DNA from: Parcubacteria group bacterium Gr01-1014_8
GTDB taxonomy: Bacteria > Patescibacteriota > Minisyncoccia > Phycocordibacterales > UBA2100
Direction: 5' to 3'
NCBI GenBank assembly: GCA_007376385.1
Contig: VMGC01000002.1
Location: 136,372-200,371 of the forward strand
Length of the DNA stretch: 64,000 bases
A program made the translations under genes and the position numbers. The notes beneath the pieces were generated by a model. That model did not search any database and was not told the DNA's origin. It saw nothing but the letters and a program-made list of their open reading frames with translations. Positions within the stretch are counted from its first letter, which is position 1, and each line of letters begins with the position of its first letter. Positions 1-39,954 of this stretch are shown piece by piece.

Positions 1-1087
1 ATTATTTTACCTGGCTGTTGCGCCGGAGTTTTACGAAACAATATTTAAAAACCTATCTGATTCGAAGTTGTCGGAGCCATGTGATGAAGATGGCGGCTGG
101 ACACGCCTTATCATTGAGAAGCCCTTCGGTGTTGATCTGAAGACGGCTAAAAGCATTGAGCGGCTCCTTACCAAGCTTTTTCTGCCGGAACAGATATATC
201 GTATTGACCATTATCTGGCCAAAGAAATGTTACAGAATATTCTTACGTTCCGCTTCTCGAATAATTTATTCGAGAAACACTGGGGACGGGACTCAATAGA
301 ACGCATTTACATAAAATCGCTTGAGGAGATAGGCGTTGAAAAGCGCGGTGCATTCTATGATCCGGTGGGCGCATTTCGCGACGTGGGCCAAAATCACTTT
401 TTGGCGATGATGGCTCTGGTCACCATGGAACATCCGATAAGTTTCGATGCAAAGGCGATCCAAAGGAAACGAGCGGATGTGCTAAAGAAATTGAAAATTA
501 TCAAAAAAAACGAAATACCGAAAGCCACATTTCGTGCGCAGCACGAGGGCTACAGAACCATCGCTGGTGTTGCGAAAAATTCCGCGACGGAAACATACTT
601 CAAAATAAAAGCGGAAGTTGCAACGAAGCGATGGAAGGGAGTACCGATAATTCTTGAAGGCGGCAAGCGATTGGGGGCGCCAGAGAAGGAAGTCATCATT
701 ACCTTCAAGCATCCAAAACAGTGTCTTTGCCCGAAAGACGGACCACATCACAAGAATGAGATAATCATCCGTTTTGAACCCAGGGAAGAGATTCTCATCG
801 AATTCTGGTCCAAAAAACCCGGCTTCACGATGGATACTGCGCCGCGCATGCTCCACTATATTCTAAGGGAACCAAAAGCGCATATTCCGTACATCGAGGA
901 ATACGCGAAGCTCCTTTTGGATTGCATTCGTGGGGATCAGATGCTGTTCGTCTCCACGTCCGAGATACAGGCGATGTGGCGCTTCACCGATCCCATCCTT
1001 GACGCATGGAAGAAGGGTTTGGTACCGTTGCATTCGTACAAACCGGATACAAAAGAAATACTACAAACATCTAACTATATACAATAG
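1..1087 (+). CDS. zwf: Glucose-6-phosphate 1-dehydrogenase, 5'-truncated at window edge (frame continues from position 2: LFYLAVAPEFYETIFK...)
   Basis: RIDHYLGKE-type motif (RIDHYLAKEMLQNIL), EKPFG motif, typical G6PD C-terminal half; gnd immediately downstream. Confidence 0.85.
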   Translation, partial: LFYLAVAPEFYETIFKNLSDSKLSEPCDEDGGWTRLIIEKPFGVDLKTAKSIERLLTKLFLPEQIYRIDHYLAKEMLQNILTFRFSNNLFEKHWGRDSIERIYIKSLEEIGVEKRGAFYDPVGAFRDVGQNHFLAMMALVTMEHPISFDAKAIQRKRADVLKKLKIIKKNEIPKATFRAQHEGYRTIAGVAKNSATETYFKIKAEVATKRWKGVPIILEGGKRLGAPEKEVIITFKHPKQCLCPKDGPHHKNEIIIRFEPREEILIEFWSKKPGFTMDTAPRMLHYILREPKAHIPYIEEYAKLLLDCIRGDQMLFVSTSEIQAMWRFTDPILDAWKKGLVPLHSYKPDTKEILQTSNYIQ

Positions 1088-1089
1088 AT

Positions 1090-2079
1090 ATGCAAAAAGA
1101 GATAGGAATGATCGGACTTGGAAAAATGGGAGGGAACATGGCGCGACAGCTCGTGGAAAAAGGATGGAATGTGCACGGTATGGATGCGGACCCTGCGACA
1201 ACACAAAAACTCGGAAAGGAGGGTATACAAGGAGCGTACTCGATACACGAACTTGTCTCGAAACTGAAAGCCCCGCGTGTGGTATGGCTCATGGTACCCG
1301 CAGGGAAACCGGAAGACGATCTGCTGTTTGGCAATGACCGACATCATGACCGACATCGTAAGTCGAACACATTGACCGACTTACGATATCGGTCACGGTC
1401 ATCCGTAAAAGATGCGGGGCTTGTACGTTTACTTTCACGGGGCGACGTTATCATTGATGGGGGTAATTCTTATTACAAAGATTCAATATCGCGCGCGAAG
1501 AAAGTCGCAACATTCGGCATCAAATTCATTGACGTTGGATTTTCTGGCGGCCCCGCGGGGGCTCGAAACGGAGGCTGTCTCATGATCGGCGGGGATGAAA
1601 GCTCGTTCAAGCGGCTCGAACCGTTGTTCAAAGACCTTGCGCGCGACAATGGGTATCAATTCTTCAAAGGTGTTGGAGCGGGCCATTTTGTAAAGATGGT
1701 CCACAACGGCATCGAATACGGCATGATGCAGGCGTTGGGGGAAGGTTTTGCGATGTTAAAAAAGACACCGTTCAAACTGGATCTCACGCGTGTTGCGGAT
1801 ATATACAATAATGGAAGCGTTATCGAGTCGCGCTTGGTAGGATGGATGAAGAAAGCGTTTCAAGAACATGGAGAAGACTTGAAGCAGGTCTCAGGTTCGG
1901 TTGGGCACACTGGCGAGGGCGAATGGACGGCAAAGACTGCGCGAGAAATGAAAATTCCGGCAAAAATAATTGGGGAATCGTACAAGTTTCGCGTTCAGTC
2001 AAAGAAAAAGCCGTCGTTTACCGGCAAAGTCGTGTCCGCATTGCGTGGACAGTTCGGAGGACATAATATTAAAGAGTAA
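1090..2079 (+). CDS. gnd: 6-phosphogluconate dehydrogenase (decarboxylating), short approximately 300-aa form, carrying an in-frame approximately 23-aa insertion
   Basis: MIGLGKMGGNMA Rossmann motif; VVWLMVPAG...IIDGGNSYY; GIEYGMMQA; 3 bp after zwf stop. Confidence 0.85.
   Translation: MQKEIGMIGLGKMGGNMARQLVEKGWNVHGMDADPATTQKLGKEGIQGAYSIHELVSKLKAPRVVWLMVPAGKPEDDLLFGNDRHHDRHRKSNTLTDLRYRSRSSVKDAGLVRLLSRGDVIIDGGNSYYKDSISRAKKVATFGIKFIDVGFSGGPAGARNGGCLMIGGDESSFKRLEPLFKDLARDNGYQFFKGVGAGHFVKMVHNGIEYGMMQALGEGFAMLKKTPFKLDLTRVADIYNNGSVIESRLVGWMKKAFQEHGEDLKQVSGSVGHTGEGEWTAKTAREMKIPAKIIGESYKFRVQSKKKPSFTGKVVSALRGQFGGHNIKE
1334..1403. repeat. Palindromic insertion inside gnd coding sequence (18-bp stem GACCGACATCGTAAGTCG / CGACTTACGATATCGGTC, one mismatch, preceded by a tandem TGACCGACATC duplication); in-frame
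   Basis: Read directly from the sequence; the protein region between the VPAG and GDVIIDGGNS motifs is about 23 aa longer than in typical short-form 6PGDH. Confidence 0.5.
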
Positions 2080-2081
2080 CT

Positions 2082-3029
2082 ATGAACAGAAACCTAGCGC
2101 TTGAATTTGTGCGAGTGACCGAGGCTGCGGCATACGCTGCAGCGAAGTGGGTCGGGAAAGGCGACAAAATTGCTGCGGATGGTGCGGCGGTAGACGCGAT
2201 GCGAGAGCGTTTCAACGAGATAGAGTTCAGCGGGACCATCGTCATTGGCGAGGGAAGCAAGGACGAGGCGCCAGAATTATATACAGGCGAAAAAGTAGGG
2301 AAAGGCAAAGGGCCGGTGATGGACCTTGCGGTGGACCCATTGGAGTGCACCGACAGCGTTGCCTTTGGACGCTTCAATGCTCTAAGCGTTATTTCAGCAG
2401 GAGCTAAGGGAAGCCTTCTTTCAGCGCCTGATACCTATATGGAAAAGATCGCTGCAGGCCCCGGCGCGGGTAAAGTAATCGATATAGATGCACCTGTCGC
2501 AACAAATATTAAAAAGGTGGCAAAGGCGCTCGGGAAGGATGTCGGGGAGATCACCGTGGTGATTTTAGACAGGGACAGGCATATCGAACTCATCAATGAT
2601 GTTCGGAAGGCAGGAGCGCGTGTTCGATTGATAACAGATGGAGATGTGGCAGGAGGTATTGCGCCGTGCATGCCAGAGAGCGGCATTGACCTATTGATGG
2701 GCATTGGCGCTTCCGCCGAGGCGGTGCTCGCGGCGACTGCGATAAAGATTATGGGGGGAGAGCTTCTCTGCCGGTTCAAACCAAAAGACGAGAAACATGC
2801 GAAATTGGTTTCGGATCACGGGCACACCACGAAGAGGATATTCAAGACGAGCGACCTCGCCAAGGGGAACGAGCTAACGTTCACCGCGACCGGTGTTATT
2901 GACGGGCCGCTTCTCCAAGGAGTGAGGATTCTAAGGGACATCGCGATAACACATTCCCTCGTCATACAGGGCGTCTCGGGGACACTTCGCTACATAACGA
3001 CCCATCACAAACTCCCTGCGTATAAATAG
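2082..3029 (+). CDS. glpX: Fructose-1,6-bisphosphatase class II (GlpX family)
   Basis: N-terminus LALEFVRVTEAAAYAAAKWVGKGDKIAADGAAVDAMR is a typical GlpX signature; approximately 315 aa. Confidence 0.85.
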   Translation: MNRNLALEFVRVTEAAAYAAAKWVGKGDKIAADGAAVDAMRERFNEIEFSGTIVIGEGSKDEAPELYTGEKVGKGKGPVMDLAVDPLECTDSVAFGRFNALSVISAGAKGSLLSAPDTYMEKIAAGPGAGKVIDIDAPVATNIKKVAKALGKDVGEITVVILDRDRHIELINDVRKAGARVRLITDGDVAGGIAPCMPESGIDLLMGIGASAEAVLAATAIKIMGGELLCRFKPKDEKHAKLVSDHGHTTKRIFKTSDLAKGNELTFTATGVIDGPLLQGVRILRDIAITHSLVIQGVSGTLRYITTHHKLPAYK

Positions 3030-3078
3030 ATCTGCTACACTGCAAAAGTGACACTAATTATTTTATTAATATATCTTT

Positions 3079-4074
3079 ATGTCTTTACAATCAATCGCAA
3101 AGCAGATGGTCGCAAAGGGAAAGGGCATCCTCGCAGCGGACGAAAGTTCGGGAACGATAGAGAGGAAGTTTGCGAAAGTCGGACTGACTTCGACAGAAGA
3201 TAATCGGCGGGCGTATCGCGGAATGCTTTTTACCTCGCCAGGTATTGGAAACTATATTTCGGGAGCCATCCTTTTTGATGAAACGATAAAGCAAAAGGCG
3301 CCCGACGGCCGCACAATGGTCTCCATTCTGGAAGCGGAAGGAATCCTGCCGGGCATAAAAGTCGACCAAGGTACGAAGGATATGGAGGGTTCGCCGGGCG
3401 AGAAGATCACCAAAGGGCTCGACGGACTTGGCGAACGTCTAAAAGAATATGCAACGTTGGGAGCAAAATTTGCGAAGTGGAGATCGGTCATTACGATAGG
3501 AAACGGTATCCCGACCGATGCAAACATCAAACAGCAAACAAAAGATTTGGCTGCGTACGCGCTGGAGTGCCAGAAAGCCGGCATTGTTCCGATGGTTGAG
3601 CCGGAAGTACTCATGGATGGCGGCCACACGATTGAAAGATGTGTTGAGGCAAGTGAAAAGACGCTCACTGCACTTTTTGAAGAGCTGAAGGCAGCAGGGG
3701 TAGATATATCGGGGACTATTCTCAAGACGAACATGATGGTTCCCGGCAAGGAGAGCGGTACGAGGGCAACACCAGAACAAGTGGCGGATGCGACTGTCGC
3801 CGTATTCAAGAAAGTTCTTCCAAATGATCTGCCAGGTCAGGCATTCCTATCTGGCGGGCAGGAAGATGTGGAAGCGACAGAGAATTTGAATGCCATCAAC
3901 AAAAAGGGACCTTTCCCCTGGAATCTTTCATTCTCATATGGCCGCGCACTTCAAGATTCGGCGCTCAAGGCATGGAACGGAAAATCAGAAAATATCATCG
4001 CTGCGCAACAGGTGTTTCTCAAGCGGGCAAAAATGAATTCACTTGCGACGGAAGGCAAATATAAAGGAGAGTAG
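3079..4074 (+). CDS. fba: Fructose-bisphosphate aldolase, class I
   Basis: GILAADESSGTIERKF class I aldolase motif; approximately 330 aa. Confidence 0.85.
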   Translation: MSLQSIAKQMVAKGKGILAADESSGTIERKFAKVGLTSTEDNRRAYRGMLFTSPGIGNYISGAILFDETIKQKAPDGRTMVSILEAEGILPGIKVDQGTKDMEGSPGEKITKGLDGLGERLKEYATLGAKFAKWRSVITIGNGIPTDANIKQQTKDLAAYALECQKAGIVPMVEPEVLMDGGHTIERCVEASEKTLTALFEELKAAGVDISGTILKTNMMVPGKESGTRATPEQVADATVAVFKKVLPNDLPGQAFLSGGQEDVEATENLNAINKKGPFPWNLSFSYGRALQDSALKAWNGKSENIIAAQQVFLKRAKMNSLATEGKYKGE

Positions 4075-4111
4075 TCGCATTTGAAACCTAATTTTTCAGC
4101 AATATCGCATG

Positions 4112-4160
4112 ATACCTTAGGTGTGCCGACCGGCACACCTAAGGTATTCAGGTTTTTGGC
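4112..4160. terminator. Bidirectional rho-independent terminator (perfect 12-bp stem ACCTTAGGTGTG/CACACCTAAGGT followed by a T-run) between convergent fba and the HAD gene
   Basis: Palindrome plus TTTTTGG read from the sequence. Confidence 0.6.
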
Positions 4161-4163
4161 GGA

Positions 4164-4811
4164 CTACAATAAAGAATGCCCGTGAAGGACGATAGGAAGA
4201 ATATCTTCGATTGTGTACACGATGTGGTCCGGTTCGTACGCGACGAGATCAGCGTGGGGTCCGTATGAAATACCAATAGTCCCGACACCGGCGGCTTTTC
4301 CCGCTTGGATGTCGACTGGCGTATCGCCGACAAACCACGCGTCTTTCGCCTCTACATCTACCGCTCGGAGGGCTGCAGACACGTGTTCCGGGTCTGGCTT
4401 GGCTCGAGTGACATCATCTTGAGACAGCAAGGCATCAAACATGCTCACTATTTTTACGTGTTGCATGGTGGCGATGGACGATTTTCTCATACGATTTGTC
4501 ACTGTTGCCAGCTTGATGCCCTTGTCTTTAAGCGTCTGCAGCGTTTCTTTTACGTTTGGAAATATCATTACTAACTGAAGATTTTTTTCTTGAAAATCGC
4601 GATGCGCTTGCATAAGCCGCAGGGCATCTTTTTCCGGGAACAGCATTTCATAGTTCTCTCTCAGCGTTTTACCCTGGCTTGCGAGAAGCACTGCAGTTGC
4701 CCGTGAAATAGGCGCTCCTTCTTCAGTGGTAACATGCTCGTAAGCACGAATAATGTACTCGTACGTATCAAGCAGAGTCCCATCGACATCAAAAAGTACT
4801 GCTTTTGTCAC
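4164..4811 (-). CDS. HAD-superfamily hydrolase, subfamily IA (phosphoglycolate phosphatase / beta-phosphoglucomutase-like)
   Basis: LFDVDGTLLDT motif I, VTNR motif II, GDTPVDIQAGKAAG motif IV. Confidence 0.75.
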   Translation of the reverse strand: MTKAVLFDVDGTLLDTYEYIIRAYEHVTTEEGAPISRATAVLLASQGKTLRENYEMLFPEKDALRLMQAHRDFQEKNLQLVMIFPNVKETLQTLKDKGIKLATVTNRMRKSSIATMQHVKIVSMFDALLSQDDVTRAKPDPEHVSAALRAVDVEAKDAWFVGDTPVDIQAGKAAGVGTIGISYGPHADLVAYEPDHIVYTIEDILPIVLHGHSLL

Positions 4812-4925
4812 TGGAAGATTATACCTAACTTCAGGAGAACTCGTATTTCTCTCACTTTGACAGGAGTCATATATCTCCGTATGATGTTTTTTTCGCCCCT
4901 ATAATAAGGCACACTTCCTAGGCAC

Positions 4926-7151
4926 ATGAGGCATATATTCTTAATCGTGCTTGCTGTCGCTTTTGCTGTATCTCTTGCAGCTTCAGTTTTTACGTTGATG
5001 CAAGTGAACAAAGAGACAGATGAGTTGTCGAAGAAGCTCAGGGAGAGGACGCTGCTTCTTGCGGATGGTCTTGCAGAGTCCGCGGCTCCTGCGTACGCGC
5101 GATATGCCACGAGTACGCTGGAAAAGTTGGCGAACACCTTTACGAATCGCGAGCGTCTCATCGGCCTTGCATTTTATGACACGCGCGGTAATAAAATTGC
5201 CGGTTCGAGCGGCGTCACAGATGAAATGCTGAAAAATGCGCCGATTCTCGATACATTCAATAGCACCGAGCCTGACGACGCTTTTGCAATTACCGAAGGG
5301 ACGAGAAAATATTATTTCGCGCAACCACTCCACTCTGACGATGCCTATATTGGCTCGCTTGTACTTGTGCAGGATGCCAGTGATATCGATGTGGCAATGA
5401 GCAGGATATGGCGAGACACATTTCTGAAACTTTTCGTATATTTTCTCCTTTTTGCCGTCGCCATCGCAGCCCTTGTCTACTTTGTGCTTTTCAAACCGCT
5501 ATCGAATTTAGCTGAATCTATCCGCCAGGCGCGAATGAATAAAGATGCGCGTGCTCCTCAACCCTCGCACCACAATTTTTTTCTGCAACCTCTTGCGATG
5601 GAAGTCTCGAAACTTGCGTCTTCACTCGCGCAGGCACGAACTGCTGCAAGCGAAGAGGCGCGTATGCGCCTTGAAAAGATTGACACCCCTTGGACGGAGG
5701 AGAGGCTAAAGGAATTCATAAAGGCGTATCTCAAGGATAGGCCTATCTATGTCGTTTCGAATCGAGAGCCCTACATACACTCCAAGGATCGCGGAGAGGT
5801 CACCTACTCGGTGCCTGCGAGCGGCATGGTGACAGCGCTTGAGTCTGTCATGGCGGCCTGCGGAGGGGAATGGCTCGCTCATGGCAGCGGAAATGCTGAC
5901 AAAGAAATGGTCGATGCGGAGAGCAAGATCCGTGTCCCACCAGATGAGCCGAAATATACCTTGAAGCGTATTTGGCTGAATCCAAAAGAGGTCAAGGGCT
6001 ATTATGTCGGTTTCTCGAACGAGGCTCTGTGGCCGCTGTGTCATATAGCGCATACGAGGCCGACCTTCAGAAAGGAAGACTGGCTGATGTACAAGCGCGT
6101 GAACGGCAAGTTTGCTGAGGCGCTTCTTGCGGAATTAAAAGGCGTCGAGCGCCCCATAGTGTTGATACAAGATTTTCATCTTTCTCTTTTGCCGCGGATG
6201 ATAAAGGAGTCGCGTCCGGACGCACAGGTCGGTCTTTTTTGGCACATACCCTGGCCGTCCGCAGAAGGCTTCAGTATCTGTCCTTGGAGAAAAGAGATAC
6301 TGCAGGGAATGCTCGGCGCGGATATAATCGGTTTTCATACGCAGCAGTTCTGCAATAATTTCCTCGAAACTGTCGGAAAAGAGATCGAATCGCTTATCGA
6401 TCTGGAGCAATTTGCTGTTACGAGCGATGAGCACACATCATTCATCAAGCCATTTCCTATAAGTATTTCGTTCACTGACGCAATGGAGGGAAAGACGTCG
6501 ATAGCGCCTGATCGCGCTGCTCTTGAAGCGATGGACATTCGAACAGAGTTCGTCGGACTTGGCGTGGACAGGCTCGACTATACGAAGGGAATTCTTGAGC
6601 GATTCAGAGGGATCGAATTTTTTCTTGACGCTCATCCGGATTTTTATAAACGATTTACGTTCTTGCAGGTCGCACCTCCGAGCCGCGAGGAATCGGAAAA
6701 GTATCGGGATTATGCAGTTGCCGTCGAGGCAGAAGCAGCCCGAGTGAATGCAAAATTCAGAAAGAATGGATGGCAGCCCATTCGTTTTGAAAAAAGGCAT
6801 TTTTCGCACTCGGAACTTGTGCCGCTCTACCAAACAGCGAACTTTTGTCTTGTGACATCTCTGCACGACGGCATGAACTTGGTCGCCAAAGAATACGTGG
6901 CAGCAAGAGATGATGAAGCAGGAGCCCTCATCTTGAGCAAATTCACCGGCGCTTCTCGCGATTTCAATCGCGGTGCGCTTATCGTCAATCCCTATAGCGC
7001 CGAAGAGGTCTCGGAAGCTATCCACCGTGCTCTCGTCATGCCCGCCACTGAGCAGCATCGTAGAATGAGATCCATGCGAACATCAATACGAGACTACAAT
7101 GTGTATCGCTGGGCGGCTGAATTTATAAAAGCAGTTGCAGCGCTCCGATAA
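4926..7151 (+). CDS. otsA: Trehalose-6-phosphate synthase (GT20, OtsA) fused to an N-terminal 2-TM periplasmic sensor-like domain with a HAMP-like linker
   Basis: GT20 core (PIYVVSNREPY, FSNEALWPLCH, HDGMNLVAKEY); N-terminal 250 aa has TM1 (aa 4-24), an approximately 140-aa extracytoplasmic segment and TM2 (aa 168-190). Confidence 0.8.
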   Translation: MRHIFLIVLAVAFAVSLAASVFTLMQVNKETDELSKKLRERTLLLADGLAESAAPAYARYATSTLEKLANTFTNRERLIGLAFYDTRGNKIAGSSGVTDEMLKNAPILDTFNSTEPDDAFAITEGTRKYYFAQPLHSDDAYIGSLVLVQDASDIDVAMSRIWRDTFLKLFVYFLLFAVAIAALVYFVLFKPLSNLAESIRQARMNKDARAPQPSHHNFFLQPLAMEVSKLASSLAQARTAASEEARMRLEKIDTPWTEERLKEFIKAYLKDRPIYVVSNREPYIHSKDRGEVTYSVPASGMVTALESVMAACGGEWLAHGSGNADKEMVDAESKIRVPPDEPKYTLKRIWLNPKEVKGYYVGFSNEALWPLCHIAHTRPTFRKEDWLMYKRVNGKFAEALLAELKGVERPIVLIQDFHLSLLPRMIKESRPDAQVGLFWHIPWPSAEGFSICPWRKEILQGMLGADIIGFHTQQFCNNFLETVGKEIESLIDLEQFAVTSDEHTSFIKPFPISISFTDAMEGKTSIAPDRAALEAMDIRTEFVGLGVDRLDYTKGILERFRGIEFFLDAHPDFYKRFTFLQVAPPSREESEKYRDYAVAVEAEAARVNAKFRKNGWQPIRFEKRHFSHSELVPLYQTANFCLVTSLHDGMNLVAKEYVAARDDEAGALILSKFTGASRDFNRGALIVNPYSAEEVSEAIHRALVMPATEQHRRMRSMRTSIRDYNVYRWAAEFIKAVAALR

Positions 7152-7152
7152 T

Positions 7153-7929
7153 ATGAGGTATTCCGAGTCGGTGCTTCCGGTGATGAGGGCGATCAGAGAC
7201 ATGCTTCTCCCAGAGTGGGGCGTCGCGAAAGCCGTCCATCAAAAAACAGCGTCCTCATGGAGCGTCGTTACGGCGCTCGATATCGAAATAGAAAAATTTG
7301 TGAGCGCCGAATTGGCGCATCTCCACCCTGATATTGAATTTGTCGGAGAAGAGCAAGGGGGGAATAGAAGTGCGAAGAAATTCTGGTTGATGGACCCGAT
7401 AGACGGAACGGCTCACTTTATCCGCGGCCTGCCGTTCTGCACGTCGATGCTTGCATTGGTCGACAGAGGGCATGTCGTTTTTTCTGCCATATACGATTTT
7501 ATACACGACGAAATGTATTTTGCTGATAAGGGGAAAGGAGCGTTCTGCAACGAAAAGAAGCTTTCAGTGAGTTCGCGAACGTTAAAAGATTCTTTCGTCT
7601 CGTTCGAGACGGATATTGCAATCGAGAAGAATGCTAATTTGCGACAAAAAATGCTCTCGCAAACGAACGTAATGACGACATTTTGTGCAGGCTGGGAATT
7701 TGCAATGGTCGCATCAGGAAAAATTGATGCGCGAATATGTCTCGACCCGTTTGGCCAAGATTATGATTTCGCTCCTGGTACGCTATTGGTAATGGAAGCA
7801 GGAGGCGTCGTCACGAACCTTGATTCGCACGAATTTGACTATACGAATTTGGATCTCATCGCAGCAAATCCGCTTGTGTATAAAGACCTTACGGAGGGAG
7901 AATCAGCATTATTCCCTCTCGGGCGCTAG
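7153..7929 (+). CDS. Inositol-monophosphatase-family phosphatase (SuhB/CysQ-like)
   Basis: WLMDPIDGT motif, EEQGG motif; ATG 2 nt after the otsA stop (the track ORF starts earlier at a TTG at 7135). Confidence 0.75.
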   Translation: MRYSESVLPVMRAIRDMLLPEWGVAKAVHQKTASSWSVVTALDIEIEKFVSAELAHLHPDIEFVGEEQGGNRSAKKFWLMDPIDGTAHFIRGLPFCTSMLALVDRGHVVFSAIYDFIHDEMYFADKGKGAFCNEKKLSVSSRTLKDSFVSFETDIAIEKNANLRQKMLSQTNVMTTFCAGWEFAMVASGKIDARICLDPFGQDYDFAPGTLLVMEAGGVVTNLDSHEFDYTNLDLIAANPLVYKDLTEGESALFPLGR

Positions 7930-8023
7930 CTATAGAGGGATGTGGACAATTGATTAACTTCTCTGCCTGCAGGGGACTATACTTGCAGGAAGGGTCGATT
8001 ATACATATTCACTCTATTTTTAT

Positions 8024-8242
8024 ATGAAGTGGTTACACATGGTCTCCTATATCCTCGTATTTGCTGGAAGCTTGAACTGGCTGCTTTTGGCGCTTACTGG
8101 ATGGGAAATAGGCTCTCTGTTCGGAGGTATGACAGCTCCAATATCGCAGGTGGTCTATGTGCTAGTTGGACTTGCAGCCATCTATCTCATCGCGACCCAT
8201 AGGAAATACTGCAAAGAGTGCGCAGCAGGTGCGCCAATGTGA
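8024..8242 (+). CDS. Small 2-TM membrane protein, DUF378 family
   Basis: 72 aa, GSLNWLLLAL...GLAAIYLI pattern typical of DUF378. Confidence 0.55.
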   Translation: MKWLHMVSYILVFAGSLNWLLLALTGWEIGSLFGGMTAPISQVVYVLVGLAAIYLIATHRKYCKECAAGAPM

Positions 8243-8437
8243 AGCTAGCCACCGCCGTTCGCGACGGTGTACTGGGGCTGGCTTGCTGATAACGTGTCTC
8301 TCTGCCGACTTGAGATCAATCTTTGCCACCTCACCGTAGTTTGGCGGCAATTCCAGATTATGAAGAGCGTGCGCGGTGGGCCCAAACCAAAACGCTCGAG
8401 GAAACTCGGGCGTTTTGCATGCTAAAGTTTCAAGAAT

Positions 8438-8872
8438 ATGGAAGACAGGCCCTTTGTCGGTATTGGCGTAACGATACTTAAAGATGGAAAAATTCTCCTC
8501 GGCAAAAGAGTATCAACGTATGGGACCGGAGAATATCAAACGCCTGGCGGACATCTTGAGCCTAAAGAAGCTTTTGAGGCATGTGCGCGGCGAGAAACCT
8601 TGGAGGAGTGCGGACTCGAAATAGGCTCAATCCGTTTTCAATTTGTAGCAAATGCCGTAGGGTATGGTCTCGTGCATTACGTTCATATTGGTTTGATAAC
8701 GGAATGGAAGGCAGGTGAACCTAAAAATCTTGAACCTACAAAATGCGAAGGATGGGATTGGTACTCTCTTGACGCATTGCCGGAGCCTCTTTTTGTATAC
8801 ACGAAATGGTCTATAGAGGCACATCAAACAGGACTCAATTATTTCGATAGTGAGGCCCGACCAGCGAAATAA
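8438..8872 (+). CDS. NUDIX hydrolase
   Basis: Nudix box GGHLEPKEAFEACARRETLEECGL. Confidence 0.8.
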   Translation: MEDRPFVGIGVTILKDGKILLGKRVSTYGTGEYQTPGGHLEPKEAFEACARRETLEECGLEIGSIRFQFVANAVGYGLVHYVHIGLITEWKAGEPKNLEPTKCEGWDWYSLDALPEPLFVYTKWSIEAHQTGLNYFDSEARPAK

Positions 8873-8980
8873 AGGTTCCTCGGAGCTTGCTCCGAGGTAT
8901 TATGGAGCTCGCTTCGCTCGCGCAGTCTCGCAGCAGAGCTGCGAGGTATTGAACCTGTGTTTGCTCCTCGGCACGGAAAT
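8867..8980. repeat. Dispersed palindromic repeat, copy 1 (expanded variant with a nested 48-bp insertion; contains the TAA stop of the NUDIX gene)
   Basis: AAATAAAGGTTCCTCGGAGCTTGCTCCGAGGTAT...TGAACCTGTGTTTGCTCCTCGGCACGGAAAT matches copies at 22252, 29962 and 51309. Confidence 0.6.
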
Positions 8981-9076
8981 GCAACAGAGTACTTTTGCAT
9001 TTCTCTCGCAATGCTCGCAAATAAAATGTGAAGGCATCTTGACTCGATTTCGTGCACGGGTAGAGTATGGGGGTTC

Positions 9077-9271
9077 ATGAACGTCTCAAATAATGTACAG
9101 AAATTGCGTATGAATCGTGATCTCACGCAAGAAGCGCTGGCGGATAAGGTTGGTGTTTCGCGCCAAACGATTATTTCTATAGAGAAGGGGAATTACACAC
9201 CCTCAGTCTTGCTTGCTTTGAAGATCGCACGCATATTTAAAGTGCCTGTTGAGGACGTCTTTTACCTATGA
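9077..9271 (+). CDS. XRE-family helix-turn-helix transcriptional regulator (Cro/C1-type)
   Basis: LTQEALADKVGVSRQTIISIEKG HTH signature; 64 aa. Confidence 0.8.
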   Translation: MNVSNNVQKLRMNRDLTQEALADKVGVSRQTIISIEKGNYTPSVLLALKIARIFKVPVEDVFYL

Positions 9272-9630
9272 ATTCACTTTTCATTCAGGTTGGTGTTGCT
9301 GTCGTTTTCATCGGGCTCCTCGTTGGACTTACCGATCCTTTTATGTACTGGATGCCCGATATGGCGGCATTAGTGGTACTCGTCGTCGCAGCTGCTCTTT
9401 CGGCGACGTGGGTAGGATTTGTTGCTCTTGAACAGAGGGGAGACGAACGTGAGGCGGGTCACCGACAATTTGCAGGACGTGCGGCGTACCTCTCAGGTAT
9501 CGCGATACTAACGATCGCGTTGGTTGTTCAAGGCTTAGCGCACGTTATTGACTCCTGGATTTCGATGGCACTTGGTGCAATGGTTGTTGTGAAGCTTGTA
9601 GCTCGCTGGTTTGCGGATCGTTTTTACTAA
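9268..9630 (+). CDS. Membrane protein co-transcribed with the XRE regulator (ATGA overlap), 3-4 TM
   Basis: Hydrophobic helices; start overlaps the HTH gene stop. Confidence 0.55.
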   Translation: MNSLFIQVGVAVVFIGLLVGLTDPFMYWMPDMAALVVLVVAAALSATWVGFVALEQRGDEREAGHRQFAGRAAYLSGIAILTIALVVQGLAHVIDSWISMALGAMVVVKLVARWFADRFY

Positions 9631-9738
9631 ATTGGACACCGCGGCTATCCACATGTGCAATGTTAAGTGCACTTTACATATCACGATTTGTATATACACT
9701 ATTCGTAATTAATCGAAATTCAGAAATAACGTAACGTT

Positions 9739-10308
9739 ATGCAATACGGAATTATTGGTCTCATTGTGCTGGCAGTTCTTGGGGGAGGTTTCTATGTTTT
9801 TCTAGGCTCATCGCAGGATACGGCAATGGTGGAGAAAGAAAAGATGGAGAAGGATGCAATGATGCAGCAAGAGGTAATGGAAATGGAAAAGAAAGCTACG
9901 ATGGAAAAGGAAGCAATGGAAAAAGAAGTAATGATGAAGGAAGAGGCGATGAAAAAAGATGACTCGATGATGGAGAAAGGTGATGCAATGATGGCGCACG
10001 GAGGCACCTATGAGGCGTATGCTCCTGAAAAGATCTCATGGGCAAAAGATGGTGACGTTGTTCTATTTTTCCGCGCATCGTGGTGCCCAACCTGCAGGGC
10101 AGTTGATGCGGACATTCGCTCGCATCTCTCCTCAATACCTAAGGATCTAACCATTCTCGACGTGAATTACGATAACTCGTCAGCACTGAAACAAAAATAC
10201 GGCGTGACCTACCAGCACACCTTTGTGCAAGTGGATGCTTCGGGAAATCAGATCACGAAATGGAGTGGAAGCCCAACTCTTGCGGCACTTGTTTCTAATG
10301 TAAAATAG
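9739..10308 (+). CDS. Membrane-anchored thioredoxin-like protein with a Met/Glu/Lys-rich low-complexity linker
   Basis: N-terminal TM; approximately 60-aa M/E/K-rich segment (MEKEAMEKEVMMKEEAMKKDDSMMEKGDAMM); thioredoxin fold WCPTC active site. Confidence 0.75.
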   Translation: MQYGIIGLIVLAVLGGGFYVFLGSSQDTAMVEKEKMEKDAMMQQEVMEMEKKATMEKEAMEKEVMMKEEAMKKDDSMMEKGDAMMAHGGTYEAYAPEKISWAKDGDVVLFFRASWCPTCRAVDADIRSHLSSIPKDLTILDVNYDNSSALKQKYGVTYQHTFVQVDASGNQITKWSGSPTLAALVSNVK

Positions 10309-10312
10309 AAAC

Positions 10313-12079
10313 ATGGTTTTGCTCATCCTCTCGTTCGTAGCAGGTGTACTAACAGTACTTGCACCTTGTATACTTCCGCTTCTGCCCGTCATCATTGGCG
10401 GCTCACTTGATCCGATGCGACACGTGCGTTTAAAGCATGCCACAACGGTTGTGCTTTCGCTCGGTGTTTCCGTTATTGTCTTTACGTTTCTTTTGAAAGT
10501 GAGCACTGCTCTTATATCTGTCCCGCCGCAGGTTTGGACGTATCTTTCGGGAGGCATTGTCTTTTTTTTCGGATTGACCTTACTTTTTCCCGGACTCTGG
10601 GAACATGTGCCGTTCATCGCAAAACTTAGCAGCCGTTCGAACCGGCTGGTTTCGACTGGCTATCAGAGGAAGAGTTTTTGGGGAGACATTTTGATAGGCG
10701 CAGCACTCGGACCGGTATTTGCGACGTGTTCTCCCACATATTTCATAGTTCTCGCGACAGTATTGCCGCAAAGTCCTGTCCTCGGCTTTGTGTATGTATT
10801 GGCGTACGTTCTCGGACTTTGTCTGATGTTGCTTCTTATCGGTATCGTCGGCCAGCGTCTTGCGGATAGCCTCGGATTTGCTTCTGATCCGCACGGAAGT
10901 TTCAAGCGCATACTTGGCGTCATATTCATGATAGTCGGGCTCGTGATCATTATGGGCTTCGATAAGAAATTTCAGATCAAGCTATTGGAGTGGGGTATAT
11001 TCGATATTACCAAAGTGGAGCAGCGGCTGTTGCAACTCACTGATCCGAATGCAAAAGGACTTGTTCCGAGCCAATCCATTGCCATTTTGGATGAAGAAAT
11101 GCGCATCGCGCAGAAAGAGAGGCTGTACGAACGAGCGCCAGAAATTCAAAATCCCGCTGGCTATGTGAACACTGGCGGCAGACCTGTCACCATCGGTGAA
11201 TTCCGCGGGAAAAAAGTCGTGCTTCTCGACATTTGGACCTACAGCTGCATAAATTGCCAGAGAACCATTCCCTACCTTAAGGCATGGCACGAGACGTACA
11301 ATGATCAAGGATTACAGATAATCGGTATACATACGCCGGAATTTGCGTTCGAGAAGGACGCAAAGAATGTCGAATGGGCAGTTCGGCAATTCGGGATCAC
11401 GTATCCAAGTGTTCTGGATAACGATTATGAGACGTGGAAAGCACTCGGTAATAATTACTGGCCGCGAAAATATCTCGTGGACATCGATGGGTTCATTGTA
11501 TACGACCATATTGGTGAGGGAAATTACGAGGAAACTGAAGCAGCGATCCAGAGGGCTCTGCAGGAGAGGGCGATGGTGGTGGGTAGTGAAATGCCTGGTA
11601 AAAAGATCGTCGCGGAAGAGATCCCTCAAGCTGATCTATCGGGAGTGCGTTCGCCGGAAACGTATTTTGGAGCTTTGCGAAACGAGAGTTTAGCCAATGG
11701 TGATCCGCAGACCATCGGTGTTGAAACGTATATACTGCCAGAAAATATCATAGGAAATGCGCTCTATCTGGAAGGGATATGGGATTTGACCCCGGAATAC
11801 GCGGGATCGAAGGGAAGGACAAAGATAGTCTACAAATATAATTCGCGGGATGTATACCTTGTGGCGAGTAGCGACAAAGGAGTGAAAATAACTGTCCTTC
11901 GAGATGGGAAGCCCGTTGGCGAATTTGCGGGTGCAGATATTGACCAGACAACAAGCACCGGGACGATCAAAGAAAACAAGCTGTACAAATTGGTGCATGA
12001 CGATGAGCCAGGACAACATCTACTTGAAATAGTCATAGAAGGCGAGGGGGTAAAGGCGTACGCGTTCACATTCGGTTGA
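10313..12079 (+). CDS. CcdA/DsbD-type membrane thiol-disulfide transporter fused to a TlpA-like thioredoxin domain and a C-terminal domain (DipZ-like)
   Basis: LAPCILPLLP CcdA motif with multi-TM N-terminal half; redoxin domain with the CINC active site (DIWTYSCINCQRTIPYL); approximately 170-aa C-terminal extension. Confidence 0.8.
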   Translation: MVLLILSFVAGVLTVLAPCILPLLPVIIGGSLDPMRHVRLKHATTVVLSLGVSVIVFTFLLKVSTALISVPPQVWTYLSGGIVFFFGLTLLFPGLWEHVPFIAKLSSRSNRLVSTGYQRKSFWGDILIGAALGPVFATCSPTYFIVLATVLPQSPVLGFVYVLAYVLGLCLMLLLIGIVGQRLADSLGFASDPHGSFKRILGVIFMIVGLVIIMGFDKKFQIKLLEWGIFDITKVEQRLLQLTDPNAKGLVPSQSIAILDEEMRIAQKERLYERAPEIQNPAGYVNTGGRPVTIGEFRGKKVVLLDIWTYSCINCQRTIPYLKAWHETYNDQGLQIIGIHTPEFAFEKDAKNVEWAVRQFGITYPSVLDNDYETWKALGNNYWPRKYLVDIDGFIVYDHIGEGNYEETEAAIQRALQERAMVVGSEMPGKKIVAEEIPQADLSGVRSPETYFGALRNESLANGDPQTIGVETYILPENIIGNALYLEGIWDLTPEYAGSKGRTKIVYKYNSRDVYLVASSDKGVKITVLRDGKPVGEFAGADIDQTTSTGTIKENKLYKLVHDDEPGQHLLEIVIEGEGVKAYAFTFG

Positions 12080-12137
12080 AAAAGTCTGCAGCGCGATCGA
12101 AAAAGTGTCTAGTTGAATATTGCTATAATGAGTTCAC

Positions 12138-14093
12138 ATGGAATCCGCACGAGCCGAGAAAATACAAAAATCACAAGATGCCGATCTGTCAACTCAACCT
12201 GCAGCGGAACCTAAGTCAGTCGGAGATGATCAATCTGGCATAGATACGGCTCGAAATGAGGAGGAAAGGAATCGTGAAGAACGAGTTCAGCGAGCCGAGA
12301 CAATGTCCAAGATGTTGGATGTGTACGTGGCGAACAGAACTCCATCGTTAGTAGAGGAGGCCCTTAAAGGGATGCCAGAAACAGAGGTCGCTGTAAGAGA
12401 GGCGCGTGCGCAAGAAGTCAAAGAGCAGTCCGAAAGAATAAAGCAATTTTTCGTCAGTGTTGACGCTGGGAAAAGAGAGGAAACGCCGCTAACAAGAATG
12501 GCTCAAATTTATGAGTATCTTGATGCTCCGGAAAATCCTAGCGAACAAGCTGAATTTGAGACTGCGATGTCAGCTCATATGCAAGAATTAGTGGAACGTG
12601 CGTTTGATCAGCACCTAGACAACCCTGAGCAGTATGTGTCTCATGGATTCGATCATTCCCTCAACGTTGCCGATTATGCCAAAAATATAATTGATTTGAA
12701 TGATGTAATTGTCGACCAGACCGCCCAGAAATACGGCATAAGTGCGAAGGAGGCAAAATTTATGCTGGAAAATGTTGCACTTTTTCACGACTGCGGCTAC
12801 CCTCATGTTGGCGCAAAGGCAAAAGCTGTGCACGGCATTGCCGGTGCAGATCTTATCTCGACCCCGAAAATGCAGGGAATATTTCGGAATCTCATTAGGA
12901 CCCCGGAGGCTAATTTGGACCTGCTTAGCCACGATCTGAGGGATTCAATACTTTTCCATTCAGCGGATAAAGTTGAGAATCAATTTTCAGCAAAAATACG
13001 GACTACACGCGGGACCTTTTTGTCGGAAGGTAGGGACGTGTATACGGTCATATCAACTTTTAATGATCCCTCGGAGAATCCGGTTGGAGTTGCGCGAGAT
13101 ATTTTGGAGATTGAGGTTGCTGATGAAGAAACAAAATTGGACATCGAAGCGCAACTTGCATTGGCGGCCGCTGATACAGCAAGAAAAACAGGTCTGCCAC
13201 CCGAATCAATTCCGGTTACTGTAGGAGGCTCCCGATTTAAGGGCAGATACACAGATCTTGCGAGGGCGAAGGATAATCGTTTGGGTTTGGAGTACTCAGA
13301 AATCGATGCTTTGCAGACACCATTGCATGCGATCATTCGATTGGCAGACAATATGGACATGCGCCGCAATCGATTTTCTGCTGTACAGAGGGAGCCAGCG
13401 TTTCGTGCAACCTATCAAGCGTTTAGCGATGGGGGACAGACGAGCAGAGCCCTTGTAACTTTAGAGGCCGAAAGTAAATTATTCAAAGGTCGCTTGGCAA
13501 GTGCGGGTTCAGAGACAGAAAAAGCTCAGCTTCTGGCAGACTCACCGCAGCTCGTTCAGTCGCAGTTTCAAGCGCTACTGGCGGAAAATCAAAACCTTGT
13601 AACAGTCACAACGGAAGAAATAGCGTCGTTGCAGCAACCTTCAGACGCGGAGAAACTTTGGAGAAAAGGCATAGCGGAACGGATCATCAACAGCGAAGAT
13701 CAGGTGTTATCGCCGGAGAATAAAAGAAAAATAATGAGCATGGCTCTTGCGCAAGATTCACAGGGAATGCGGCATTTTGGCGGTTGCGAAGCGGTAACAG
13801 ATGTCCGAATGGAACGTTTCGGTGAGCGCGGAGCTGAAGTTTCAATTGTCGTTGTTACAGCAGATAGGGGGCAATTTGAACAGCTCAATCGCACGCGTGT
13901 TCAGGATTCAAGCCTCGATAAAGAGGGGAACGTCAGCACTGTCGAGCTTGGCATAGGTGAGTATCAAATTTGGCGCGCGCGTGAGGCTTACAAAAGTATC
14001 TCGGTTGGTGGGAAAAAGATCGGCATAAGGGTTCAGGACGAGAATGGCTTGGAACTCCAAACGACTTTTGAACAATTTAGAGAGGAGAAATAG
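12138..14093 (+). CDS. Large HD-domain (metal-dependent phosphohydrolase) protein with a charged N-terminal region and a long uncharacterised C-terminal region
   Basis: H...HD pattern: HSLNVADYA...LFHDCGYPH; TATAAT lies 8 nt before the start (leaderless-like). Confidence 0.55.
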   Translation: MESARAEKIQKSQDADLSTQPAAEPKSVGDDQSGIDTARNEEERNREERVQRAETMSKMLDVYVANRTPSLVEEALKGMPETEVAVREARAQEVKEQSERIKQFFVSVDAGKREETPLTRMAQIYEYLDAPENPSEQAEFETAMSAHMQELVERAFDQHLDNPEQYVSHGFDHSLNVADYAKNIIDLNDVIVDQTAQKYGISAKEAKFMLENVALFHDCGYPHVGAKAKAVHGIAGADLISTPKMQGIFRNLIRTPEANLDLLSHDLRDSILFHSADKVENQFSAKIRTTRGTFLSEGRDVYTVISTFNDPSENPVGVARDILEIEVADEETKLDIEAQLALAAADTARKTGLPPESIPVTVGGSRFKGRYTDLARAKDNRLGLEYSEIDALQTPLHAIIRLADNMDMRRNRFSAVQREPAFRATYQAFSDGGQTSRALVTLEAESKLFKGRLASAGSETEKAQLLADSPQLVQSQFQALLAENQNLVTVTTEEIASLQQPSDAEKLWRKGIAERIINSEDQVLSPENKRKIMSMALAQDSQGMRHFGGCEAVTDVRMERFGERGAEVSIVVVTADRGQFEQLNRTRVQDSSLDKEGNVSTVELGIGEYQIWRAREAYKSISVGGKKIGIRVQDENGLELQTTFEQFREEK

Positions 14094-21019: not shown

Positions 21020-21550
21020 ATGCGTCCTGATACTATGGTTGTAGAAAAATACAGAGACGTCATGAAGCTTCCGCACGATATAGAAGCCGAGCTGGACGGT
21101 GCGCCTCTGTTTGAAAATTTGGAAGCTGCAATGGGGACACTTGAGCTCGAGCATAAACGCCGTCGCAACCTTTTAGAGCACGCTGGGAAGGCAGAACGTC
21201 TCAACTACCCTGATAAGGCAACTGCGATAAAAGCAGCGATAATGAATGGAAGGTCAGCAGCAAAAGAAACAGCTGCGTGGGAGGATTTTACGCAGTCGAA
21301 TCCTTCTGCAGAACAGGCGGCAATAGTTCTAGCGCACGTCTCTCATTTTAGGTCCGCGAAACCGACGCTGCTCGATATGGCAATTGATTTCTTTCTTCTT
21401 CGTATTCAGGAGGTTACTGATGCGAAAAAATCAAGAGAGATAGTGGCTCTCGCTGCAAATGCCATTCGCAGCAGGCATCTGGACGATCCCGAAAAAAAAG
21501 GATATTTACGGAGACTGCAACTCTTAAATGGAGTGGGCGAGGAAAAATGA
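21020..21550 (+). CDS. Hypothetical protein
   Basis: ORF only. Confidence 0.4.
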   Translation: MRPDTMVVEKYRDVMKLPHDIEAELDGAPLFENLEAAMGTLELEHKRRRNLLEHAGKAERLNYPDKATAIKAAIMNGRSAAKETAAWEDFTQSNPSAEQAAIVLAHVSHFRSAKPTLLDMAIDFFLLRIQEVTDAKKSREIVALAANAIRSRHLDDPEKKGYLRRLQLLNGVGEEK

Positions 21551-21684
21551 AAGGTTTCAACCCCCAAGGCAAGCCCTGGACTCTGGAAAACGAGCACCGC
21601 TCGTTTCCCAAATTCCGCGGCCTGTCTGCGTGCATCGCACAGGTACACATATATCGGCGGCATTCACCGTGGTACACTGGCACT

Positions 21685-22239
21685 CCCATGAACACAACGA
21701 TTACGACAGGGTGGCTGAAGTTTGTCATAGGATGGACAGCTGTGTTCCTATTCCGCTTGATACCATTCAGACCGCCGAATTTTGAGCCAATGTTGGCGAC
21801 GATCATGCCGTTCTCAAAGCGATACGGCGTTGTGGGGAGCTTTTTGTTCGGATTCCTCGGAATTGTTCTCTACGATGCAGTAACGTCCGGCTGGGGGATA
21901 TGGACACTTGTAACGTCCGTCTGCTACGGCCTGTTGGGTGTCGGAGCATATTTTTTCTTTAAGAATCGTGAGGCAACGGCAACACATTTTGTGATGTTCG
22001 GCGTCCCGAGTACGGTATTGTACGACGCTGTAACGATGATGATAGGACCCCTCTTCAATGGACAATCTTTTGCTGCGGCGCTCATAGGGCAAATTCCATT
22101 CACCGTCATGCATCTTCTTGGAACCATTGTATTTGCAACACTTCTCAGTCCCGCTTTATACCGCTGGGTCGTTCAAAATGATGTTTTGGAATTTTCTGTT
22201 CTATGGATGCAGGTTCGCTCGTTGATCGGCACTCGTTGA
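21685..22239 (+). CDS. Multi-TM membrane protein, possibly an ECF-transporter S-component-like substrate-binding subunit (track ORF starts at 21547; likely start is the MNTTITT Met)
   Basis: 5-6 hydrophobic helices; the N-terminal 46 aa of the track ORF are non-membrane and overlap the preceding gene. Confidence 0.45.
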   Translation, partial: PMNTTITTGWLKFVIGWTAVFLFRLIPFRPPNFEPMLATIMPFSKRYGVVGSFLFGFLGIVLYDAVTSGWGIWTLVTSVCYGLLGVGAYFFFKNREATATHFVMFGVPSTVLYDAVTMMIGPLFNGQSFAAALIGQIPFTVMHLLGTIVFATLLSPALYRWVVQNDVLEFSVLWMQVRSLIGTR

Positions 22240-30033: not shown

Positions 30034-30458
30034 TGCAACTCATTATAAAAAAATATCAATGGTGTTTGACAACAAGCATGAATACGTATCGAAATACTTT
30101 TCCACATGGCTAATTCATTGACACTCCACGAGAACGCGCGATAATTCGCCTACGTTTCGTCGCGTGCGCAAAATGCGATAAAGCGAGGGGAACCAGCGGA
30201 CAATATGTCCGTTGAGAACATTTTTTTTACTCACAGCTGTCTTTTTGAAATGAAGAGACGAGGCATCGCTGACCGTGATGCGTCGTTTTTTATTATGCAA
30301 ATGGACGACTGAAGTCCATGGAGCGGCTTATTTCCATGAAATGAGCCGCTCCGTGAACTGCAAGGTTCATGAGAAAGGTCGAGTTCTGCATTGCGCCGTC
30401 CGTACGGAGGCACAATGTCAGGTTTATCAAAACTTATCAACATGAAAAATTCAAAGAT

Positions 30459-37524: not shown

Positions 37525-37695
37525 ACCACTCCTTCGGGGTTGGGTGAAAGTCCCAATCGGCGGTATAGCCCGCGAGTTCTTAGGGACACGATTTGGTGAG
37601 ATTCCAAAGCCGACCGTACAGTCGGGATGAAAGAAGGAAGCGAGGCACCCTTGTTGGATGCTTGCGTGGTAACCCCGATGGATCGGGGTTTTTTA
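37525..37695 (+). ncRNA. FMN riboswitch (RFN element) with a terminator expression platform (AACCCCGATGGATCGGGGTTTTTT at 37671-37694)
   Basis: GGGTGAAAGTCCCAATCGGCGGTATAGCCCGCGAG...GATTTGGTGAGATTCCAAAGCCGAC...AGTCGGGATGAAAGAAGG matches conserved FMN aptamer blocks; upstream of the rib operon. Confidence 0.85.
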
Positions 37696-37700
37696 TTTAT

Positions 37701-38288: not shown

Positions 38289-38728
38289 AAAAGATCGGCG
38301 ATATACGGATCGGCATCATCGGAAGCTCTTTCCGAGAGAATATCACTGCAGAACTTGAAAAACGTTGCGTGAAAACACTTCGAGTACGAGGGATATCAAA
38401 AGAACACATTCACCTTGTACGTGTTCCTGGTGCCTTCGAGATACCGCTTGTTGCAAAAAAAATGGCAATGCAGAGAACATACGACGCGCTCATAACATTT
38501 GGTGCGATCCTTAAAGGAAAAACGTACCACTTCGAACAAATAGCGAATGAGTGTGCGCGCGGCTGTGCCGAGGTGTCGCGTGCGTACGATATTCCTATTA
38601 TCTTCGAGGTGCTCGCGGTCTACGATCTGAGGGATGCGCTCGAACGCGCAACACGACCACATGAAAACAAAGGCGTCGAAGCGGCTGAATCTGCTTTAGC
38701 CATGATCAAGCTCATGTCGTCGCTATGA
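38285..38728 (+). CDS. ribH: 6,7-dimethyl-8-ribityllumazine synthase
   Basis: VPGAFEIP motif; approximately 147 aa. Confidence 0.9.
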   Translation: MKKIGDIRIGIIGSSFRENITAELEKRCVKTLRVRGISKEHIHLVRVPGAFEIPLVAKKMAMQRTYDALITFGAILKGKTYHFEQIANECARGCAEVSRAYDIPIIFEVLAVYDLRDALERATRPHENKGVEAAESALAMIKLMSSL

Positions 38729-39951: not shown

Positions 39952-39954
39952 CGT

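Follow-up and report, generated by a model that had tools for sequence, protein, structure and literature searches.

A transmembrane sensor-like module fused to trehalose-6-phosphate synthase in a Parcubacteria genome and in more than ten bacterial phyla

The sensor-OtsA gene and its domains

In a 64,000-nucleotide stretch of contig VMGC01000002.1 from Parcubacteria group bacterium Gr01-1014_8 (hereafter the window, with positions counted from its first letter), a trehalose-6-phosphate synthase of glycosyltransferase family 20 (GT20) is encoded in one gene with an N-terminal membrane-sensor module. The open reading frame (ORF) of this sensor-OtsA fusion runs from 4926 to 7151 on the + strand and specifies 741 amino acids (aa) plus the stop, with GT20 assigned through Pfam. 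It is followed on the same strand (7153..7929, +; 258 aa) by a gene for a phosphatase of the inositol monophosphatase (IMPase)/SuhB family (PF00459), in the slot held by OtsB in related loci; a single base lies between the TAA stop of otsA (7149-7151) and the IMPase ATG at 7153. In sequence the fusion protein matches the 'trehalose 6-phosphate synthase' of Parcubacteria group bacterium Gr01-1014_8 at 100% identity, and Kaiserbacteria provide its nearest relatives; a look-up of an annotated 734-aa version of the protein (P0035) gave no record.

The catalytic domain occupies 5742..7148 (+; aa 273-741). In the Pfam search PF00982 spans aa 275-737 and profile positions 4-471 of 473 (E 3.2e-114), a complete GT20 domain preceded by an extension of about 272 aa, and the top relatives among solved structures are fungal Tps1 and bacterial OtsA (PDB search, E about 1e-62 to 1e-79). 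OtsA from E. coli MG1655 was aligned to the domain as the reference for a residue check. The residues R9, G22, Y76, W85, D130, H154, R262, K267, R300, D361 and E369, which we take from the 1GZ5 and 1UQU structures to be its substrate-binding and catalytic set, are invariant in the alignment (11/11), and the residues that bind glucose-6-phosphate and UDP-glucose are all kept. Because every E. coli OtsA residue checked is conserved, the domain looks catalytically competent. The protein scores 425 bits against the NCBIfam equivalog model for OtsA (TIGR02400, cut-off 564.85) and 298 bits, well under this, against the model for the glucosylglycerol-phosphate synthase GgpS, and two of its motifs, FWHIPWP and SNREPY, are specific to the family and unlike classical OtsA. 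This is a divergent OtsA subfamily, its function suggested by the retained residues and by the OtsB genes that neighbor its members.

Ahead of this domain lie the only two segments of the whole protein in which Kyte-Doolittle hydropathy, averaged over 19 residues, rises above 1.6 (aa 1-28 and aa 163-196); they enclose about 137 aa. On this basis, and on that of an AlphaFold2 model of aa 1-276 (131 sequences; mean predicted local distance difference test score, pLDDT, 85), we delimit five features, all on the + strand: a first transmembrane helix (TM1, 4926..5000, aa 1-25), an extracytoplasmic sensor domain of single-Cache/PDC type (5001..5411, aa 26-162), a second transmembrane helix (TM2, 5412..5495, aa 163-190), a HAMP-like helix-connector-helix segment (5496..5639, aa 191-238; helix AS1 at about 191-204, connector 205-220, helix AS2 from 221) and a conserved helical linker (5640..5741, aa 239-272), 'AASEEARMRLEK.D.PWT.ERLKEF.KAYLKDR'. 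In the model, the TM1 helix (2-58) continues into the sensor domain and is followed by an alpha/beta region (62-150), a helix carrying TM2 and AS1 (152-204), a loop (205-220) and two further helices (221-253 and 258-269). This is the layout of a single-Cache/PDC domain, with a long N-terminal helix and an antiparallel beta-sheet with flanking helices, set between two transmembrane helices. A Foldseek search of the PDB placed the full-length WalK model 9a5d first (E 6e-10, 257 aligned columns), then the WalK extracellular domain (TM-score 0.68-0.75 on the target), followed by DcuS, DctB, KinD and CitA, and a profile built from 11 diverse members of the sensor-OtsA family matches WalK extracellular-domain sequences at E 1.4e-5. 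A WalK-like single-Cache/PDC fold is thus well supported for the predicted external domain.

The segment of about 50 aa directly after TM2 is supported as HAMP-like by its position, its helix-connector-helix form in the models, its signature residues and, marginally, its sequence: the family profile repeatedly matches the Af1503 HAMP domain over profile positions 187-238, at full length and in register, at a marginal E of 0.04-0.6. The linker helix leads directly into beta-1 of GT20 (VVSNR), which bears the glucose-6-phosphate-binding arginine, Arg280. The short basic N-terminus (MRH) would lie in the cytoplasm, and K190, R200, R203 and K206 come after TM2, in agreement with the positive-inside rule; given this charge pattern, the HAMP-like segment and GT20 would be cytoplasmic as well, where UDP-glucose and glucose-6-phosphate occur.

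An earlier sequence-only reading of this DNA had proposed an extension of some 250 aa with two transmembrane helices around an extracytoplasmic domain of about 140 aa, the architecture of a histidine-kinase sensor wired to a glycosyltransferase instead of a kinase, with an IMPase-family gene immediately downstream. The dimensions, the fold relationships and the downstream gene given above bear this out. Curated domain models match the region poorly: when aa 1-270 and fragments of it were run against Pfam at E <= 10, the only matches were weak ones to Cache (sCache_like and dCache_3, E 0.016-0.045) and SMP_2, and HAMP (PF00672) was unmatched. PF02743 is precomputed on some homologs.

Distribution and conservation of the architecture

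Among the matches listed, at least 120 homologs are full-length (732-798 aa, query coverage 96-100%, identity 56-69%); they span many Patescibacteria lineages, including Kaiser-, Doudna-, Magasanik-, Taylor- and Nomurabacteria, and the only names their sources give are 'trehalose-6-phosphate synthase' and 'hypothetical protein'. With aa 1-270 alone as the query, an exhaustive search yielded 462 cluster representatives at 50% clustering. Forty of the longer ones were checked; GT20 was present in 17/40 and the glutamate-cysteine ligase family 2 domain (GCS2) in 1/40, and the 22/40 that gave no output-domain match, many of them short, are probably fragments. The consensus of the 40 extends into the start of GT20, and the N-terminal module pairs almost only with this enzyme domain. 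Two family-specific peptide patterns, run against one genome per species, located the module joined to GT20 in at least 593 species genomes, drawn from over ten phyla: Patescibacteria, many Acidobacteriota (Terriglobia), Elusimicrobia, Nitrospirae, Desulfobacterota/Syntrophus, Omnitrophota, Planctomycetes, Bacteroidota, Chloroflexi and Rokubacteria were represented. Eighty of these genomes, in which the match spans most or all of aa 1-345, were kept. With more than 120 full-length homologs at 56-69% identity and the same module-GT20 fusion in at least 593 species genomes, the fusion is not a chance pattern.

Conservation is uneven along the protein. Across 72 cross-phylum sequences the median pairwise identity is 38% in the N-terminal region versus 64% in GT20. 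The HAMP signature positions P191 and E226 are nonetheless at least 90% conserved, as are A237, R238, A241, E244, A245, R248, W256, T257, R260 and L261. The extracytoplasmic domain is the least conserved part (mean frequency of the commonest residue 0.50), yet nine of its positions reach 90% or more.

The literature searched, mostly papers outside subscription, held no description of a trehalose synthase fused to a sensor, HAMP or Cache domain and no combination of HAMP with GT20. Pfam and NCBIfam contain no model for the N-terminal module, and a paper on bacteria of the candidate phyla radiation (CPR) names trehalose osmoprotectant genes in general terms only (PMC11608272). Proteins of this architecture make up a large OtsA subfamily, spread across phyla and unannotated as such, with an apparently new and widespread combination of known modules. 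The sequence-only reading, which did not recognize it as a described architecture, was right as far as the papers and curated models searched are concerned. The architecture is no local oddity.

Variants of the arrangement were also seen. One metagenome contig of 6.9 kb (L092:3373-5445; P0230, 690 aa) encodes the same succession of TM, Cache, TM and HAMP-like segments fused to GCS2 (PF04107) rather than GT20, and chimeric assembly is possible there. P0157 (913 aa) is a sensor-OtsA with a duplicated extracytoplasmic domain in a tandem, double-Cache-like array. A 1.9-kb contig from a metagenome-assembled genome (MAG) labelled Gammaproteobacteria (L007) carries a sensor-OtsA N-terminal region 47% identical to that of the window protein; this is similarity at the level seen within Patescibacteria, and the contig is probably mis-binned.

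The gene in the OtsB slot and the surrounding window

The phosphatase step was approached through gene order. We examined 80 species loci and ten more contexts, about 72 of which had room downstream, and classed the downstream ORFs with a hidden Markov model (HMM) built from them and checked against Pfam. Trehalose_PPase (OtsB, PF02358) follows sensor-OtsA directly in 32 of the roughly 72 loci, and about five more seem adjacent when ORFs with over-long starts are taken into account (32-37/~72); the OtsB-linked loci include Patescibacteria, among them Nomura-, Doudna-, Magasanik- and even Kaiserbacteria. An IMPase gene takes the slot in four lineages only: the window, a Kaiserbacteria relative (L001/L002), a Taylorbacteria contig (L003) and a MAG labelled Saccharibacteria (L004). 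In all of these, otsA and the IMPase gene are 1-14 nt apart, and the pairs are divergent (56-68% identity in OtsA, 48-72% in IMPase), representing at least three divergent lineages. No OtsB-like ORF was detected in the 64-kb window (OtsB HMM, E <= 10) or in the flanks of L001-L004.

The IMPase gene resembles OtsB (HAD-IIB, PF02358) in its position directly after sensor-OtsA and differs from it in fold, the IMPase fold (PF00459) being unrelated to HAD; it is not an OtsB member. Pfam assigns PF00459 to its product at E 8.6e-46, the closest solved protein is the Thermotoga maritima IMPase 2p3n, and the metal-binding motifs FVGEEQG, MDPIDGT and DYDFAPG are intact in the sequence and in the alignment to 2p3n. 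All NCBIfam equivalog models score below their cut-offs (bits/cut-off: HisN 133/275, CysQ 100/229, fructose-1,6-bisphosphatase (FBPase)/IMPase 99.6/264, IMPase 78/332). A role as a missing FBPase was rejected, since a GlpX FBPase is encoded at 2082-3029. A metagenome contig scan with the IMPase protein found one 1-kb contig, which offered no useful context.

Because an IMPase gene sits in the OtsB slot, no OtsB-like ORF occurs in the window or flanks, and a GlpX FBPase lies upstream, the synteny has the pattern expected for non-orthologous displacement of OtsB. The sequence-only reading had offered the IMPase as a non-orthologous trehalose-6-phosphate (T6P) phosphatase; the position in the exact OtsB slot of sister lineages speaks for this, and the wider distribution of the IMPase group speaks against it. 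We regard a T6P phosphatase function as a possibility with somewhat less than even chances. Several observations weigh against it. Its orthologous group is large within Patescibacteria (2356 matches at E <= 1e-10), and none of the four orthologs sampled (53-55% identity) is near OtsA; they stand beside NUDIX, HAD or DCD genes. The OtsA-linked IMPases are not monophyletic. As to whether the otsA-IMPase pairing arose once, the trees give a mixed picture, since the IMPase-linked OtsA sequences do cluster roughly, although an OtsB-linked sequence from Kaiserbacteria falls inside the cluster. We know of no IMPase-fold T6P phosphatase, the searched literature contains none, and an unlinked otsB may lie elsewhere in the genome, the search having covered the window and the flanks.

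The size of the orthologous group, the placement of the sampled orthologs and the IMPase tree also favor an incidental adjacency, to which we would give an even chance: the IMPase would be a housekeeping phosphatase or SuhB-like factor, acting on inositol phosphate, 3'-phosphoadenosine 5'-phosphate (pAp) or NADP or in a Nus-factor role, that became the neighbor of otsA when otsB was lost or moved, and T6P would be handled by an unlinked OtsB or a promiscuous HAD phosphatase. The resemblance of the protein to generic IMPase/SuhB proteins, which are its nearest relatives, fits this explanation, as does the NUDIX gene about 0.5 kb downstream in the window, two of the four sampled orthologs standing directly after NUDIX genes. 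Coincidence accounts less readily for a pair that turns up in no fewer than three divergent lineages with gaps of 1-14 nt and always in the exact OtsB slot, for the lack of a detected OtsB in the window and the L001-L004 flanks, and for the L004 locus, in which the pair is joined by genes for a trehalase-like glycoside hydrolase (GH) and a ROK kinase; with GlpX present, moreover, an FBPase role for the IMPase is unnecessary.

The L004 operon (4835-12692) comprises a GH63/MGH1/trehalase-like hydrolase, a ROK sugar kinase, sensor-OtsA, the IMPase and a P-type cation ATPase, and resembles a compact trehalose cycle with an ion pump next to it. After the window IMPase come a DUF378 gene (8024-8242) and the NUDIX gene (8438-8872). 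Patescibacteria IMPase orthologs recurrently adjoin NUDIX hydrolase genes, for instance at L085:4540-5771, with a 4-nt overlap, and on a 730-kb JGI contig, which hints at a nucleotide-related housekeeping role of the group. Other neighbors of sensor-OtsA are varied. A GT4-type glycosyltransferase gene (Glycos_transf_1), rather than a phosphatase gene, follows it in a Patescibacteria locus (L087:6241-7374) and in a Chloroflexia locus (L009:9244-10401), the former with a hybrid histidine kinase gene directly upstream; a Doudnabacteria contig has a TreT-like trehalose synthase gene divergent and upstream of sensor-OtsA-OtsB (L088:2511-3773, -), and a Magasanikbacteria contig an MscS-type mechanosensitive channel gene upstream (L090:1501-2085).

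On the other side of otsA, Pfam and NCBIfam identify a HAD-IA hydrolase of the PpaX/phosphoglycolate-phosphatase-like type (4164..4811, -). Its divergent upstream position, noted in the sequence-only reading, was confirmed, and its inclusion there in a trehalose module was not: in the closest relative (L001/L002) the gene stays beside the aldolase gene, separated from otsA by four genes. As the adjacency is not conserved, we do not count it in the module; it is probably a neighbor, and its candidacy as the T6P phosphatase partner was downgraded on the same ground. The HAD encoded beside an IMPase ortholog in L084 is 25% identical to the window HAD-IA, hence of a different subfamily, and lends no support to such a partnership.

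A sigma-70-like promoter match (TTGACA, 17-nt spacer, TATGAT; 11/12) lies at 4857..4885 (+), about 40 nt 5' of the ATG at 4926, and a strong bidirectional terminator at 4111-4148; both are consensus matches only, and promoter-like sites in the region are no more numerous than expected from shuffled sequence. The consensus scan placed no terminator-like site between otsA and the IMPase gene. Upstream, positions 68-4074 hold a sugar-phosphate block of zwf (cut at the window start), gnd, the glpX FBPase gene and a class I aldolase gene, an order kept in the Kaiserbacteria relative L001. Genes for myo-inositol-phosphate synthase, TreS, TreT or trehalase were absent from the window ORFs scanned (beyond 14 kb, main-strand ORFs of 200 aa or more). 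Farther along the window are an S component resembling those of ECF riboflavin transporters (21547-22239) and an FMN riboswitch (104 bits; 37526-37642) ahead of riboflavin genes at 37593-41046 (lumazine-binding/riboflavin synthase, RibBA, RibD). Three large ORFs gave no significant Pfam match, at 12138-14093 (651 aa, with a sub-threshold HD-domain match only), 28347-29606 (419 aa) and 30369-31355 (328 aa).

A receptor-enzyme for trehalose synthesis?

From the architecture, its conservation and the one case of the same module on a GCS2 ligase, we suggest that the gene encodes a one-component transmembrane receptor-enzyme, a reading to which we assign a probability of roughly 0.58. The fusion suggests that trehalose synthesis could be switched directly by an extracellular signal. 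In the proposed scheme, the WalK-like single-Cache/PDC domain would face outward between the two transmembrane helices, and the HAMP-like module and conserved linker would join TM2 to beta-1 of GT20, in a protein that would be dimeric like HAMP receptors. Osmotic, desiccation or envelope stress, or else a small ligand, would be the most plausible signal; received by the extracytoplasmic domain or within the membrane, it would shift the HAMP and linker helices and thereby alter GT20 activity, so that T6P synthesis would be switched post-translationally without a kinase or regulator. The T6P would then be dephosphorylated by the product of the directly downstream gene, OtsB in 32-37 of about 72 loci; in the window the IMPase-family enzyme may serve. 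What the analysis establishes is the domain order and fold, a catalytic domain with its residues intact, the broad conservation and the operon position; how the protein is oriented, that it dimerizes, that and by what signal it is gated, and what the IMPase acts on are inferred.

Some features count against regulation from outside. A conserved sensor fold is by itself no proof of signaling, and no ligand or signal can be named for this one. The HAMP assignment lacks a match to PF00672, its sequence agreement with Af1503 is marginal, and in the full-length monomer model the HAMP and linker region has a pLDDT of 53-67.

The main rival draws on these points. The N-terminal region could be a degenerate sensor relic that serves as a membrane anchor or scaffold, tethering and dimerizing OtsA, for instance to bring trehalose production close to channels, transporters or the lipid surface, with activity constitutive or set by transcription and substrate supply. 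Besides the lack of nameable ligand-binding residues and of a Pfam HAMP match, the low conservation of the extracytoplasmic domain speaks for this, and for the closest match, the extracellular domain of WalK, we know of no established small-molecule ligand. A plain anchor, however, would need neither a folded external domain of 137 aa nor a HAMP-like module, both retained in over ten phyla; the nine strongly conserved external positions and the high conservation of the HAMP signature positions and of the linker into beta-1 are likewise poorly accounted for, and the occurrence of the module on GCS2 in one relative is easier to reconcile with a portable regulatory module than with an anchor specific to OtsA. 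We consider the tether unlikely, at about one chance in four. Far less probable still is that GT20 makes another product, such as glucosylglycerol-phosphate (as GgpS does) or another glucosyl-phosphate, with the IMPase as its cognate phosphatase: the score under the OtsA cut-off (425 vs 565 bits), the 298-bit GgpS match and the deviating FWHIPWP and SNREPY motifs would allow it, but the OtsA score far exceeds that for GgpS, every glucose-6-phosphate- and UDP-glucose-binding residue of E. coli OtsA is kept, and Trehalose_PPase genes come after sensor-OtsA in relatives.

The receptor-enzyme reading, if true, would have consequences in several directions. Trehalose is one of the main compounds that protect cells from drying and osmotic stress, and where its synthesis has been studied, control is to our knowledge through transcription and substrate supply; with a receptor-enzyme, an external or membrane signal would reach osmolyte synthesis faster and more directly, and glycosyltransferases would join the known outputs of HAMP and Cache signaling. 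Members of the subfamily are common in CPR bacteria and soil Acidobacteriota, groups whose stress physiology is poorly understood, and a generic annotation name hides them. If the IMPase truly replaces OtsB, pathway reconstructions based on otsB would undercount trehalose synthesis in CPR genomes. The most far-reaching version, in which a new class of one-component receptors with a metabolic glycosyltransferase output gates T6P synthesis in hundreds of species, abundant soil Acidobacteriota and CPR bacteria among them, and, in addition, an IMPase-fold T6P phosphatase has displaced OtsB in a Kaiser-/Taylorbacteria-like clade, is doubtful, and we would rank it even below the tether.

Among known receptors, the N-terminal half of WalK (YycG) provides the closest parallel, with its order of transmembrane helix, extracellular PAS/sCache domain, transmembrane helix and HAMP domain, the last corresponding to a HAMP-like segment here. 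It differs in output, which in the window protein is a glycosyltransferase and not DHp/HATPase, and the window protein has no cytoplasmic PAS domain, phosphotransfer or response regulator. The wider group of HAMP-linked enzymes (histidine kinases, adenylyl cyclases such as mycobacterial Rv3645, methyl-accepting chemotaxis proteins, phosphatases and Cache-HAMP-GGDEF cyclases) likewise connects an external sensor through TM2, HAMP and a helical linker to a catalytic domain that is regulated in the dimer; we know of no HAMP-linked glycosyltransferase or metabolic sugar-phosphate synthase in the recognized output repertoire. On the enzyme side, the catalytic domain aligns end to end with OtsA and Tps1 (E. 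coli 1GZ5/1UQU, Candida Tps1 5HUV), but these characterized enzymes are soluble, and the window protein adds about 272 aa of TM, sCache, TM, HAMP-like segment and linker. A looser analogy is the TPSP operon of Thermoproteus tenax, which is reported to come with a glycosyltransferase and a mechanosensitive channel (PMC3634074). There too trehalose synthesis is genetically tied to a membrane element that senses stress; in that operon the sensor is a separate channel protein and the enzyme a soluble fusion of T6P synthase and T6P phosphatase (TPS-TPP), whereas in the protein described here sensor-like module and synthase form a single polypeptide.

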